From NCBI RefSeq assembly GCF_048300925.1, contig NZ_CP133759.1: DNA of 32,000 bases; one strand, 5' to 3'. Under the pieces are notes generated by a model that saw only the letters and a program-made list of their open reading frames with translations, was not told the origin of the DNA and searched no databases. A program made the position numbers and the translations under genes. Positions 23,024 through 32,000 of this stretch are shown piece after piece (positions within the stretch are counted from its first letter, which is position 1; each line of letters starts with the position of its first letter). The stretch comes from Thermithiobacillus tepidarius DSM 3134 (lineage in GTDB: Bacteria; Pseudomonadota; Gammaproteobacteria; Acidithiobacillales; Thermithiobacillaceae).

Positions 23024-23587
23024 TCAGCCGCCGAGCGGCGGGAAGAATGGCGGCACCGCCAGTTGCTTCGGGGCGTACACGAACCACCATTCCGAGTACT
23101 TGTCCTTGCCGGCAAGTCCCCGATCGGCCGCGTGGAAGTTGCCGGTTTTTAGCGGTTTGTCCGTCGACAGGCTGTAAACTCCGATGATGCCCCCGCTCGG
23201 CTCCTTCACCAGGCCCCATTCCGCCTGGCCCGTCAAGGGATCGCGGTAGAGCCGGCGCAGATAGCGCTGGGTGGTGATCTGGCGCGGGTCTTTGAGCAGG
23301 TCCTCCAAGCGCCGGGGATAGGCCTTGGCGCCGCCGGGAGAGCGTTCGTAGTACTGGCCGATGGCCTCCCGGAATTGGTTGCCGATGAACAGCAGTTCCT
23401 TTTCTTTCTCCCGCTGCTGCTGGGTGTGCCAAACCGTGCCGGTCAGGGAAAGACCGGCTCCCAGCAGGACCATCGCCAGCAGCAGTCCCAGATAGGTGAA
23501 ACCGCCCTGCCCGCCGGCCACGCGGGCCGGGTCCGCCGCTGTAGAGGCTGCCGGCCGCAACCGGGCGATCCTGTGAACGCTCGACAT
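23024..23587 (-). CDS. Atypical prepilin-type pseudopilin lacking Glu+5
   Basis: 187 aa. The N-methylation-type site is GQGG|FTYLGLLLAMVLLGAGL, with Gly instead of Glu at +5. The ATG at 23587 abuts the upstream stop and gives a 29-aa leader. The in-frame GTG at 23521 would give a 7-aa leader. The C-terminal region has KYSEWW, resembling the YSEW/YREW ends of its two neighbours. Confidence 0.7.
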   Translation of the reverse strand: MSSVHRIARLRPAASTAADPARVAGGQGGFTYLGLLLAMVLLGAGLSLTGTVWHTQQQREKEKELLFIGNQFREAIGQYYERSPGGAKAYPRRLEDLLKDPRQITTQRYLRRLYRDPLTGQAEWGLVKEPSGGIIGVYSLSTDKPLKTGNFHAADRGLAGKDKYSEWWFVYAPKQLAVPPFFPPLGG

Positions 23588-23983
23588 TCACCACTCGCTG
23601 TAGGGCGTGCCGTCCGAAGCCTTGCCCGACGCCCCGCTCTTCACATCGAAAACGCCGCTTTGCTCCGGATCGTCCGGCATCACCGCAACCCAGGTGCCGC
23701 TGCTGCCGGTGAAGGGGTCGACCGGCAGTTTGCGCAGGTATTTCCCGGTCACCAGCGCATCGAGGTCTGCCGGATACTTGCCGGTATCGCCATAGTACTT
23801 GTCGATGGCATCACGCATGAGGCTGAGGTCCTGGCGCAGCACCGCCTCCTGGGCGCGCTCGGTCTGGTGCATGTAGCGCGGCGCCACGATCGTCAGCAGC
23901 GTGGCGATGATGGCCATCACCACGAGCATTTCGATGAGCGTGAAACCGTTTGCCTGCTTGCTCTCGTGCATGGGAATCACCAC
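23588..23983 (-). CDS. GspG-like pseudopilin (type II secretion / type IV pilin N-methylation domain)
   Basis: 131 aa. ANG|FTLIEMLVVMAIIATLLTIVAPRY with Glu+5. The GspG-like body reads LR.DL..MR.AID.YY.DTGKYP..L..LV...YLRKLPVDPF and ends PYSEW. The track start is GTG at 23983; the alternative is ATG at 23971. Confidence 0.8.
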   Translation of the reverse strand: MVIPMHESKQANGFTLIEMLVVMAIIATLLTIVAPRYMHQTERAQEAVLRQDLSLMRDAIDKYYGDTGKYPADLDALVTGKYLRKLPVDPFTGSSGTWVAVMPDDPEQSGVFDVKSGASGKASDGTPYSEW

Positions 23984-24492
23984 TCGCGGTAGGGAATGCC
24001 GTTGAGGCCGGTCCGGTCGTTGCGCGAGTACACGTCGAAGACGTCCTCGCCCGCCTGCGGATCCTCCGGCGCGCTGGCATAGCTGCGCAGGCCCCAGGTC
24101 TCCTCGGCCGGGATGCCCGGATCCGACACCATGGGGTCGCGGGGGATGCGGCGCAGAAAGTAGATCTTCGCGCGGCCAGGATGCTTGGCATCCTCGACCC
24201 CGGCGGCCAGCGCCTGCAGGCTGGGCGGATAGCCGGAGGCATCGGCCGCCCTGGTGATGCGGCCCTCGTCAACGGCCTGTTTGTAGGCATCGATGGCCGT
24301 GCGGATCTCGCGCAGGGCGCTGCGCAGTTCCTGCTCCTTGCTGCGCTGCACCGCGAGTTCGGCCATGGGCATGGCCGCGGTCGCCAGAATCCCCACGATG
24401 GCGACCGTGATCACCAGTTCGATCAGGGTGAAGCCATCGCAGCGGCTGCCGGAGAGGCGGACGGGCACGCCCTGGCCGCGCTTACTCGCCAT
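23977..24492 (-). CDS. GspG-like pseudopilin with long leader
   Basis: 171 aa. RCDG|FTLIELVITVAIVGILATAAMP with Glu+5, a 20-aa leader from the ATG at 24492, and ..LREIRTAIDAYK...RIPRDPM... ending IPYREW. It overlaps the secretin stop by 11 nt. Confidence 0.8.
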   Translation of the reverse strand: MASKRGQGVPVRLSGSRCDGFTLIELVITVAIVGILATAAMPMAELAVQRSKEQELRSALREIRTAIDAYKQAVDEGRITRAADASGYPPSLQALAAGVEDAKHPGRAKIYFLRRIPRDPMVSDPGIPAEETWGLRSYASAPEDPQAGEDVFDVYSRNDRTGLNGIPYREW

Positions 24493-30538: not shown

Positions 30539-31722
30539 TGAATGCTCCCGGCCAGTTCAAAGATGGGCAGGTACATCAGCACGACCACGGTGCCGATCAC
30601 GACGCCGATCACGGCCATCAACAAGGGCTCGAAAAGCTTGGTGAACCAGTCGACCCAGCGCGCCATCTCCTCGTCGTAAAAAGCGGCGATGCGCTCCATC
30701 ATCTCGCCCATCTGGCCGGTGCGCTCGCCGACGCGGAGCATGCGCAGCGCCACCGGCGTAGTGAGTTGGTGCGCCTCCATGGCCTGGGACAGCGACTGAC
30801 CTTCACGGATCCGCTGGCCGGCGGACTGCAGATGGGCGCGCAGGGTCGGATGCAGCAGGCCGGCCGCCATGTCCAGGCCAGTGACGATGGGGATCCCGCC
30901 GCGCAGCAGCATGCCCAGGGTGCGGTAGAAGCGTGCCAGCTGATAGATGCGCATGCGCTCGCCCACGGCCGGGATCTGCCAGAGCTGCTGCCCGATCCGG
31001 GCGCGGACGGCGCTGCGGGTCAGGCCATAGCCCAGGCCCGCCAAGCTCAGCCCCAGGCCCAGGAAGACCGTGCCGCCATGGGCTTCCAGCAGCTGCCCCC
31101 ACTCCATCAGCAGCCGGGACATCAGCGGCAGGTCACCGCTCATGTCCTCGTAGATGTGGCTGAACTTGGGCACGACGTAGACCAGCAGAAACAGCGTGAC
31201 CAGGCCGCCGGCGCCGATGAGCAGCAGCGGATAGATGGACGCGCTCACCAGCTTCTTGCGCACCACGTCGAGCTGCGCCTGATAGGCCACGTAGCGGGAC
31301 AGCGCCTCGGGCAGATCGCCGGTCTGCTCGCTGGCGCGGGTGCTGGCCACGTAGAGTGGCGGAAAGGCATCCGGGAACTGCTGCAGGGCGGCGGACAACG
31401 TCTGTCCCTCGTAGAGCGCCTGCAGCAGCTGGTTGAGCAGCTTCCGGGTCTCGGCACGCTGCTCTTTCTCGGCCAGGGTCTCCAGCGCCTCCACCAGCGC
31501 CAAGCCGGCCTCCAGCAGGGCCAGCAGCTCCTGGCTGAAAAGCACCAGCGGGAAGCGCTGGCGGCGAGTGAGGCCGGACCAGGATGCCCGCGGCTTGACG
31601 GCCAGCACCGCCAAGCCCTGCGCGGTCATCTGCCGCGCCGCGCTCTCCGCATCGGCGGCCTCGCAGACGAGGGAAACCACCCCGCCGGGCTCGCGCAGGG
31701 CACGGATCTCGAACTGGGCCAT
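30535..31722 (-). CDS. gspF: Type II secretion / type IV pilus platform protein, GspF/PilC family
   Basis: 395 aa from the ATG at 31722. The stop forms an ATGA overlap with the gspE start. Two T2SSF repeats are present (LFSQELLALLEAGLALVEAL...; FYRTLGMLLRGGIPIVTGL...), with three TM segments and the typical C-terminus VIGTVVVLMYLPIFELAGSI. Confidence 0.9.
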   Translation of the reverse strand: MAQFEIRALREPGGVVSLVCEAADAESAARQMTAQGLAVLAVKPRASWSGLTRRQRFPLVLFSQELLALLEAGLALVEALETLAEKEQRAETRKLLNQLLQALYEGQTLSAALQQFPDAFPPLYVASTRASEQTGDLPEALSRYVAYQAQLDVVRKKLVSASIYPLLLIGAGGLVTLFLLVYVVPKFSHIYEDMSGDLPLMSRLLMEWGQLLEAHGGTVFLGLGLSLAGLGYGLTRSAVRARIGQQLWQIPAVGERMRIYQLARFYRTLGMLLRGGIPIVTGLDMAAGLLHPTLRAHLQSAGQRIREGQSLSQAMEAHQLTTPVALRMLRVGERTGQMGEMMERIAAFYDEEMARWVDWFTKLFEPLLMAVIGVVIGTVVVLMYLPIFELAGSIQ

Positions 31723-31727
31723 GGGAA

Positions 31728-32000
31728 TTACCAGTTGGTGATGTCCGCGGCTTCGCCGCTGCCGCCGGGCTGGCCGTCCTTGCCGTAGGACAGCAGATCG
31801 AAATCGCCGTGGGCACCGGGCTGTTGGTAGACATAGGGCTGTCCCCAGGGATCGTTGGGAATCGCCTTTTTCAGGTAGGGACCGGCCCATTTGGCCTCGT
31901 CGGCCGGGCGGGCATTGAGGGCGGCCAATCCCTGCTCCGTACTCGGGTAGCGGCCCGTGTCCACGCGGTACTGCTCCAAGGCCTTCTCCAGCGCATCGAT
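31728..32000 (-). CDS. gspG: Type II secretion major pseudopilin GspG (C-terminal part; N-terminus lies beyond window end)
   Basis: The frame is open to nt 32000. It reads IDALEKALEQYRVDTGRYPSTEQGLAAL...GPYLKK.IPNDPWGQPYVYQQPGAHGDFDLLSYGKDGQPGGSGEAADITNW, the canonical GspG body including the C-terminal Ca-binding-type DG..GG....D loop. Confidence 0.88.
   Translation of the reverse strand: MDALEKALEQYRVDTGRYPSTEQGLAALNARPADEAKWAGPYLKKAIPNDPWGQPYVYQQPGAHGDFDLLSYGKDGQPGGSGEAADITNW

Follow-up and report, generated by a model that had tools for sequence, protein, structure and literature searches.

Which machine do eleven tightly packed genes of Thermithiobacillus tepidarius DSM 3134 encode, when some of their products resemble parts of type II secretion systems (T2SS) and others the alignment proteins of type IV pili (T4P)? 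The genes occupy positions 23024 to 32000 of a stretch of 32,000 nucleotides from contig NZ_CP133759.1, which is called the window in the following. The results indicate that this operon probably encodes a type IV filament machine of the Xcm type, and that its likeliest role is the secretion or surface display of folded periplasmic proteins.

Organization of the operon

The eleven genes are collinear on the minus strand in the order gspG, gspF, gspE, M (PilM/cytoplasmic-GspL-like), N (PilN-like), O (PilO-like), P (proline-rich), the secretin with tetratricopeptide repeats (TPR) and a lipoprotein signal, p1, p2 and p3, with junctions between an overlap of 20 nt at one extreme and a gap of 5 nt at the other. 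The genes, from first to last, are the following:

31728..32000 (-): gspG, major pseudopilin; the C-terminal 90 aa are inside the window, with the stop at 31730-31728
30535..31722 (-): gspF-like inner-membrane platform protein, 395 aa; Pfam T2SSF (9.2e-55), two copies
28838..30538 (-): gspE/pilB-like assembly ATPase, 566 aa; Pfam T2SSE (7.1e-126) and N-terminal PF05157
28027..28857 (-): M, soluble actin-fold protein, 276 aa; PilM/cytoplasmic-GspL-like fold
27494..28027 (-): N, PilN-like bitopic protein, 177 aa; Pfam PilN
26946..27497 (-): O, PilO/GspM-like bitopic protein, 183 aa; the family profile matches PilO
26410..26946 (-): P, protein with a transmembrane (TM) anchor, a poly-proline linker and a C-terminal beta domain, 178 aa; putatively PilP-like or like the homology region (HR) of GspC
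24482..26413 (-): liposecretin, 643 aa; Pfam Secretin (8.2e-42), Secretin_N, STN and TPR_19
23977..24492 (-): p1, GspG-derived pseudopilin with the cleavage motif G/FTLIE, 171 aa; Pfam N_methyl
23588..23971 (-): p2, GspG-derived pseudopilin with the cleavage motif G/FTLIE, 127 aa; Pfam N_methyl and T2SSG (22.6 bits, cutoff 21)
23024..23587 (-): p3, pseudopilin without Glu5, with G/FTYLG, 187 aa; homologous to GspG, p1 and p2 by hhalign

A separate gene call on the source contig yields the identical eleven genes. Through the exact GspF sequence, 21 kb of contig AUIS01000016.1 (assembly GCA_000423825.1; named L001 here) were retrieved. The genome of T. tepidarius DSM 3134T (AUIS00000000) has a GC content of 66.8% (PMC5186765), and the G+C content of the window is about 68%. 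On L001, gspG is the first gene of the operon and encodes a protein of 143 aa, which is cut by the end of the window.

Concerning the junctions, all of which were checked base by base, gspF and gspE share ATGA at 30538-30535, and M starts with GTG at 28857, inside gspE, which gives the 20-nt overlap. M and N meet at TGATG (28029-28025), N and O at ATGA (27497-27494), P and the secretin at TTGA (26413-26410) and p2 and p3 at TGAATG (23590-23585). The secretin and p1 genes overlap by 11 nt, and a 5-nt gap lies between gspG and gspF and between p1 and p2. O and P meet at GTGATG, so that they overlap by 1 nt (start ATG 26946) or by 4 nt (start GTG 26949). An earlier note, made from the letters of the window, had described a tight minus-strand operon of eleven genes, with which both the inspection of the junctions and the separate gene call agree; its list of junctions also stands, apart from an ATGA placed at 26946, where the sequence reads GTGATG. 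The packing of the operon is more than chance: related loci share the tight junctions, and across 82 of them the E/M overlap has a median of -20 nt.

Within 9.5 kb upstream of gspG and 2.5 kb downstream of p3 on L001, there is no gspC, gspH-K, gspL, gspM, gspO/prepilin peptidase or pilT gene. The same note had reported that GspH/I/J/K, a prepilin peptidase, PilT and GspC were lacking and had considered that canonical gspH-K, gspC or gspO could sit just past nt 32000. The first statement holds over both of these flanks, and extension of the contig shows gspG heading the operon with none of those genes in the 9.5 kb upstream. A single ATPase is encoded in the 21 kb of L001, with no retraction ATPase among its genes. 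Promoter and terminator scans at both ends of the operon gave nothing convincing.

ATPase, platform protein and major pseudopilin

GspG is the only operon protein that exceeds a curated T2SS equivalog cutoff (TIGR01710, 180.8 bits for the full protein of L001 versus 88.85; Pfam T2SSG 5.2e-40). It presents the leader ...CSRG/FTLLE, with cleavage after G, as well as the C-terminal GspG loop. For the platform protein, the best NCBIfam model is GspF, with 285.8 bits under a cutoff of 424, and PilC models reach about 200 against a cutoff of 700. The ATPase scores almost equally with GspE (503 bits, cutoff 630) and PilB (493 bits, cutoff 676). In the PDB, its best full-length match is PilB from Geobacter (374 bits), and EpsE from Vibrio reaches 353 bits. 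ComG family models scored far under cutoff in the curated-model scan of the window proteins.

Control of the ATPase by cyclic di-GMP through its N-terminus was also considered because of a GGDEF gene upstream of the operon, and it was rejected as unsupported. This N-terminus lacks the MshEN motif (RLGxxLLxxGLL), and PF05157 is a generic GspE N-domain.

Assembly-platform proteins M, N, O and P

M has no match in Pfam or NCBIfam and belongs to a family of 3728 representatives at 50% identity. Its AlphaFold2 model, built from 27 homologues, has a pLDDT of 93.8, and Foldseek relates it to PilM (1.3e-13) and to the cytoplasmic part of EpsL/GspL (TMt 0.68), with a match to the GspE-GspL complex 4pht as well. 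N exceeds the threshold of Pfam PilN (28.6 bits versus 22.8), and the N-family profile found no match in the PDB. The family alignment of N displays a conserved cytoplasmic N-terminus, MRxLxLDYQ, followed by one TM helix, and this conserved end would fit a PilM-binding peptide.

N and O are homologous to each other according to hhalign (84.5%). As a single protein, O stays below the threshold of Pfam PilO (17.3 versus 22), and its family profile matches PilO from Myxococcus xanthus (4.8e-9) and Pseudomonas aeruginosa (0.0076) in the PDB; moreover, the Pseudomonas orthologue of O carries T2SSM_b. P from the window has no Pfam match. The best PDB matches of its family profile are weak (PilP 2ivw, E 0.13; 4av2_M, 0.59), and Pfam analysis of 38 family members gave no PilP and one marginal T2SSC (0.039). 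P holds the same gene position as pilP in pilMNOPQ. Mainly because of this position and its architecture, P may tentatively be regarded as a PilP/GspC-HR-like connector to the secretin.

TPR-lipoprotein secretin

The secretin carries, from its N-terminus, a lipobox (VSG/C19, with cleavage before Cys19), a TPR region (~20-170), an N0/STN domain (205-255), one Secretin_N domain (269-327), the core (394-558) and a disordered Pro/Ala tail. Cys19 is invariant in 53 homologues, and the TPR part is modelled with an AlphaFold2 pLDDT of 92-97. Foldseek searches with the models returned PilQ, GspD and InvG together with designed TPR proteins, the best fold match being the competence PilQ of Vibrio cholerae. 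Curated models score under their cutoffs (GspD 154 versus 351, PilQ 142 versus 284 and MshL 115 versus 250 bits). The family is very large: all of the 8000 scored candidates were significant, with 50-67% identity over the full length, and most of these relatives bear no annotation beyond 'general secretion pathway protein D'. The secretin of Acidithiobacillus caldus (8jvb) was considered as a member of the same family and rejected because this match, the best by sequence in the PDB, reaches 90 bits over the C-terminal domain only.

HxcQ from P. aeruginosa resembles this protein in having the N-terminal lipid anchor on the secretin itself, and it is described as self-piloting (Viarre et al. 2009, as cited in PMC3521999). 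The T4P pilotins PilF, PilW and Tgl share the TPR module with it. In contrast to both, lipobox, TPR and secretin are joined here in one polypeptide, which would be self-piloting.

In a subset of the homologous TPR-secretins (P0014, P0015, P0020, P0024, P0034, P0051, P0087, P0089, P0107, P0111, P0118 and P0120), 740-790 aa long, a Cohesin domain (PF00963) is present in addition. Secretins do not usually have such a domain, which hints at a docking site, either periplasmic or on the outer face.

Pseudopilins p1, p2 and p3

By hhalign, p1 is related to the GspG family (97.6%) and to p2 (99.9%), p2 to GspG over its full length (99.5%), and p3 to GspG (93.2%), p1 (99.1%) and p2 (99.2%). The homology of the three proteins to one another and to GspG reaches past the N-terminal helix. 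On the other hand, GspH, GspI and GspJ models match p1 and p2 in that helix only, far under cutoff. p3 has no match in Pfam or NCBIfam. All 39 of its aligned orthologues keep GFTY, and at position 5 they have G, A, V or T, never Glu. A subunit of T2SS or T4P without Glu5 is a tip subunit, as established for GspK, and p3 is hence proposed as the cap or primer of the filament.

The assignments made in the earlier note fit these results in nearly every case. Its GspG is above an equivalog cutoff and its GspF and GspE are clear family members, all three of its GspG-derived pseudopilins are supported by hhalign, and in the TPR-fused lipoprotein secretin the lipobox Cys is invariant and the TPR region is modelled with confidence. 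Its PilM-, PilN- and PilO-like calls are borne out by the fold of M, the Pfam threshold of N and the profile of O. The poly-Pro PilP/GspC-like protein fared less well: PilP is indeed its best PDB match, but a weak one. The note had also allowed that ATPase, platform and secretin might all nest inside a well-characterized subtype, and the three lie under every curated equivalog cutoff of T2SS, type IVa pili (T4aP) and mannose-sensitive haemagglutinin (MSH) pili.

Relationship with Xcm and other known systems

Loci from Pseudomonas, Zestomonas, Azotobacter and Aromatoleum present a collinear E-M-N-O-P-Q-p1-p2-p3 cluster with 33-64% identity to the window proteins (tblastn). These clusters start at the ATPase and have no gspG or gspF. 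In most of them, genes for a giant protein, a lactonase-like propeller, two SCO1 proteins, a substrate-binding protein and a SurA_N protein precede the core. In four loci from Pseudomonas and Zestomonas (L003, L077, L080 and L084), an mnxG-type operon ends just ahead of the ATPase gene, and only in these four does csgE-csgF-csgG directly follow the third pseudopilin (~15400-17200 in each), with no csgA/B. The csgEFG genes are lacking in the window and in the betaproteobacterial loci, and their adjacency is probably a feature of the Pseudomonas lineage and not a defining one.

The composition of the mnxG operon of Pseudomonas putida GB-1 matches the block that precedes the ATPase (PMC8218464). 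The Xcm cluster, a second, non-Xcp T2SS, has been described in P. putida GB-1 and KT2440 and in Pseudomonas capeferrum WCS358 (PMC4509608), and locus L084 comes from P. capeferrum, the species of WCS358. Regarding its function, PMC3521999 names de Vrind et al. 2003 (Mol Microbiol 47:993) as the source for T2S-type export of the Mn oxidase. The name Xcm was found in no database record of the Pseudomonas p3 orthologues, all of which are generically called 'type II secretion system protein', and the literature search returned no paper joining mnxG with type II secretion.

Genetic work reportedly showed that Xcm is needed for export of the Mn-oxidizing factor in P. putida GB-1/KT2440. De Vrind et al. 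reportedly present xcmT1/xcmS as a separate GspG/GspF pair and place the pseudopilin genes xcmT2, xcmT3 and xcmX beside three csg homologues, and the clusters of KT2440 and Ralstonia are said to add XcpR and XcpQ homologues. The Pseudomonas loci found here agree with that arrangement gene for gene. We take p3 to be the positional counterpart of XcmX.

The operon of T. tepidarius shares with the Xcm of P. putida the nine-gene collinear core, a last pseudopilin without Glu5 and a cluster with no GspC, GspH-K, GspL, GspM or GspO. Both systems would also include a GspG and GspF pair. However, this pair heads the operon as genes 1 and 2 in T. tepidarius, whereas the Pseudomonas cluster does not contain it (it reportedly forms the separate xcmT1-xcmS operon). 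The mnxG operon and csgEFG that flank the Pseudomonas cluster are both missing from the window, and the host here belongs to Acidithiobacillia and is an obligate sulfur chemolithoautotroph.

Compared with canonical T2SS (Gsp/Xcp/Eps/Pul), the likeness consists of the GspG equivalog, the GspE-like ATPase, the GspF-like platform, the secretin and the lack of a retraction ATPase, and a piston-like export of folded periplasmic proteins is presumed here as well. Nevertheless, there is no GspC (HR and PDZ) and no fused GspL, a PilO-like protein replaces GspM, three GspG paralogues stand in place of the GspH-I-J-K tip, and no GspO is encoded in the locus. The canonical secretin has domains N0-N3, whereas this one has N0 and one N domain, a lipid anchor and TPR.

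The likeness to the PilMNOPQ set of T4aP lies in separate PilM-fold, PilN-like and PilO-like proteins, a fourth small protein and then the secretin, with an identical order of genes, and in the N0 and single N domain of the secretin. In contrast to T4aP, there are no AMIN domains, P is TM-anchored instead of being a lipoprotein and is weakly PilP-like, no PilA, PilT/U or PilC equivalog is found, and the ATPase, platform and pilins share the operon with the alignment genes. From MSH pili the locus differs in the missed MshL cutoff, in having no MshM-like gene and no separate MshN gene, and in an order unlike mshI-Q. The layout is unlike canonical Gsp, Pil and Msh, as the earlier note had stated, and neither the component lists nor the curated cutoffs of T2SS, T4aP and MSH fit it.

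Another T2SS described as atypical is the 'Pul'/OxpG system of Geobacter, with the three pseudopilins PulG, OxpG and TklG, which is needed to export OmpB, a large multicopper oxidase of the MofA/OmpB type (Mehta et al. 2006; PMC3543383 and PMC5566968). By its description, the export of OmpB parallels the link between Xcm and MnxG.

Distribution and conservation of the gene order

Relatives were located with a profile scan of one genome per species, using a 12-sequence subset of the M alignment, and 301 stretches were confirmed in species-representative genomes. Gene order was compared in 80 fetched loci. Exactly the 11-gene order of the window was found in 21 of them, and about 40 more are compatible with it and cut by contig ends. 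The same order thus recurs in dozens of Beta- and Gammaproteobacteria. The hosts are mainly Betaproteobacteria, with some Gammaproteobacteria, and include Gallionellaceae, Sideroxydans, Ferrovum, Sulfuricella, Thiobacillus, Nitrosospira, Nitrotoga, Methylotenera, Rhodoferax, Rhodocyclaceae, Pseudogulbenkiania and Hydrogenophilales. The system is new for Acidithiobacillia, and it is of a kind already named, widespread and little studied. The expectation that homologous clusters would be uncharacterized rather than unseen was right in that they recur under generic annotations; it needs correction in that the Xcm counterpart has been studied genetically.

The G-F pair and the E-to-p3 core behave as separable modules, as seen from two rearranged related loci. 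In L069 (8400-16000) the gspG-gspF pair is placed after the secretin, and in L048 (2595-7300) three pseudopilin genes lie ahead of a second P-like gene and a secretin.

In related loci the commonest neighbours are genes for NarL-type regulators, placed directly after p3, for HisKA_3 kinases and for SLT lytic transglycosylases, and a few loci have SCO1 and MofC-like cytochrome/binding-protein genes upstream. A search for a conserved cargo, made in the flanks of about 30 related loci, brought up no recurring genes other than these four kinds, the SCO1/MofC-like one only occasionally. Eight SLT lytic transglycosylase open reading frames (ORFs) were seen in these flanks, GspA/GspB-like genes (AAA_16 and T2SSB) in two cases, and a subtilase with cadherin/Ig domains upstream in L015. 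All of them are possible accessory or cargo genes.

Proposed mechanism

For the Xcm-type machine of T. tepidarius, the following steps are proposed. An unlinked prepilin peptidase would cleave GspG, p1, p2 and p3 between G and F. The single GspE/PilB-like ATPase would dock on the GspF platform and on the soluble actin-fold M, which the conserved cytoplasmic N-terminus of the PilN-like protein would hold at the membrane; in this way M and N would jointly correspond to a split GspL. The periplasmic alignment pair would consist of N and the PilO-like protein, and the TM-anchored, Pro-rich P would connect them to N0 of the secretin. As a lipoprotein with a TPR domain of its own, the secretin probably reaches the outer membrane by self-piloting, with no separate pilotin. 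p3 would cap or prime the filament, with p1 and p2 next and GspG as the body, and ATP-driven growth of this pseudopilus would push folded periplasmic cargo through the secretin.

Several points weigh against this reading. The equation with Xcm is suggested by synteny and by the gene arrangement that de Vrind et al. 2003 reportedly described. The ATPase, GspF and the secretin are as near to T4P as to T2SS models, and the sequence therefore leaves room for a surface fibre. The PilP/GspC-like call for P is weak (E 0.13), and no prepilin peptidase gene was located in the 21-kb locus. In addition, the window has no mnxG-type oxidase, SCO1 or csgEFG gene and its neighbours are not conserved at related operons, so any cargo named for T. 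tepidarius is a guess.

Surface fibre, ordinary T2SS or DNA uptake

The strongest rival to secretion through an Xcm-type machine is that the operon builds an extended surface fibre, that is, an adhesive or MSH-like pilus whose true pilin would be the GspG-like protein and which the PilMNOP-like scaffold and PilQ-like secretin would let out. Several features are in line with this: the scaffold is T4P-style, the secretin has the N0 and single N layout with the competence PilQ of V. cholerae as its best fold match, the best full-length PDB matches of the ATPase are PilB, the locus is single and has no peptidase, as in MSH (PMC6668835), and a GGDEF gene lies directly upstream. Yet the major subunit exceeds the GspG equivalog cutoff and has the C-terminal GspG loop, the locus lacks PilT/PilU, none of the PilB, PilQ and MshL cutoffs is reached, and there is no MshM and no separate MshN gene. 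Furthermore, the genetic phenotype reported for the Pseudomonas counterpart (PMC4509608, PMC3521999) is a secretion defect. A fibre of this kind is consequently considered unlikely.

An ordinary T2SS, with GspC, GspH-K, GspL, GspM and GspO encoded elsewhere and M-N-O-P as an unrelated insertion, would account for the presence of GspG, E, F and D homologues, and the search for the lacking Gsp parts covered the 21-kb locus and the window. It is nonetheless very improbable. The 11-gene order with its overlapping junctions is conserved across classes, and E, F and D miss the T2SS equivalog cutoffs. By fold or family, M, N and O are themselves parts of the T2SS/T4P assembly platform, and they thereby cover what GspL and GspM would provide.

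The window also contains comEC (Competence and DUF4131 domains) at 2304-4646 and recJ at 9910-11679, both on the minus strand. A competence pseudopilus for DNA uptake, working with this ComEC channel, could draw on these two genes, on Com-type pseudopili of some species that also have no retraction ATPase and on the atypical pul genes near DNA-uptake genes in Geobacteraceae (PMC3543383), but it is barely credible, since comEC is 18 kb off, beyond the housekeeping genes lolCDE, lysS, prfB, recJ, thrC, hom and rpoS, the linkage is not kept in related loci, the operon has no ComEA or DprA, and the ComG models score far under cutoff.

Significance of the Xcm-type system

Under the Xcm-type reading, a machine first met in Mn-oxidizing Pseudomonas is common, compact and strongly conserved in lithotrophic and environmental Beta- and Gammaproteobacteria and in Acidithiobacillia, and its carriers include iron, sulfur and ammonia oxidizers. 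Three of its eleven proteins (the PilM-like M, the Pro-rich P and the Glu5-less p3) have no Pfam or NCBIfam model, and annotation and classifiers of the TXSScan type probably under-call the system for this reason. It offers a minimal model for a pseudopilus without the GspHIJK tip, a split GspL and a self-piloting secretin. Moreover, it points to enzymes that may be exported to the surface in organisms with an extracellular redox chemistry of geochemical relevance.

A broader idea, which at this stage is speculative and rather doubtful, is that Xcm-type systems are a separate, widespread class of type IV filaments, distinct from T2SS, T4aP and MSH. The class would be marked by a split GspL, a self-piloting TPR-liposecretin and a pseudopilus of GspG paralogues only, and it would be specialized for placing large metallo- or redox enzymes on the surface. 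In the sulfur oxidizer T. tepidarius, the exported proteins would then be the SoxB-like hydrolases and beta-propellers encoded nearby, in place of a Mn oxidase.

Genomic neighbourhood and candidate cargo

On L001, gspG and a PAS-HisKA_3/NarL pair are separated by four same-strand genes (2591-9342, window-equivalent 32381-39132), whose products are an NHL propeller with a Tat signal, two paralogous SoxB-like metallophosphoesterases with Sec signals (224 and 198 bits versus the SoxB cutoff of 550) and a protoglobin-GGDEF diguanylate cyclase. gspG lies 221 nt after the protoglobin-GGDEF gene. Between them, 79 nt before the start of gspG, is the palindrome GGCATGCTGGCGTCAGCATGCC (L001 9464-9485, window-equivalent 32238-32259), whose strong hairpin has -22 kcal/mol with its flanks; after it comes TTGTGCCGTTTT. 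This palindrome may serve to terminate the GGDEF gene or as the site of a regulator.

Downstream of p3 there are genes for a Vgb-lyase-like propeller and a nitroreductase and a surE-pcm-nlpD-rpoS block. The first of them is the following:

21715..22875 (-): Vgb-lyase-like beta-propeller; Pfam Vgb_lyase (9.4e-67), signal-peptide-like N-terminus

This propeller gene is 253 nt downstream of p3, in the kilobase of the window with the lowest GC content (0.584 versus about 0.68), and it may have been acquired horizontally. It is only a candidate cargo, and neither this gene nor the other window neighbours are conserved beside related operons. The nearest candidates for cargo are its product, the Tat-signal NHL propeller and the two SoxB-like metallophosphoesterases. 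The 9.5 kb upstream and the 23 kb downstream of the operon contain no oxidase, SCO1 or MofC-like gene.

No tRNA or Rfam element was found in the window. Between recJ and thrC, an ORF of 348 aa at 12223-13266 (-) has no Pfam match, and the adjacent ~500 nt (11700-12200) are without a called gene; this ORF may be spurious, owing to the high GC content, or an unannotated gene. Finally, prfB (window ~9750-9860, minus strand) carries the classic programmed +1 frameshift site AGGGGGTATCTTTGAC, with CTTTGA at 9777, and its short peptide (28 letters) ends at the in-frame TGA.

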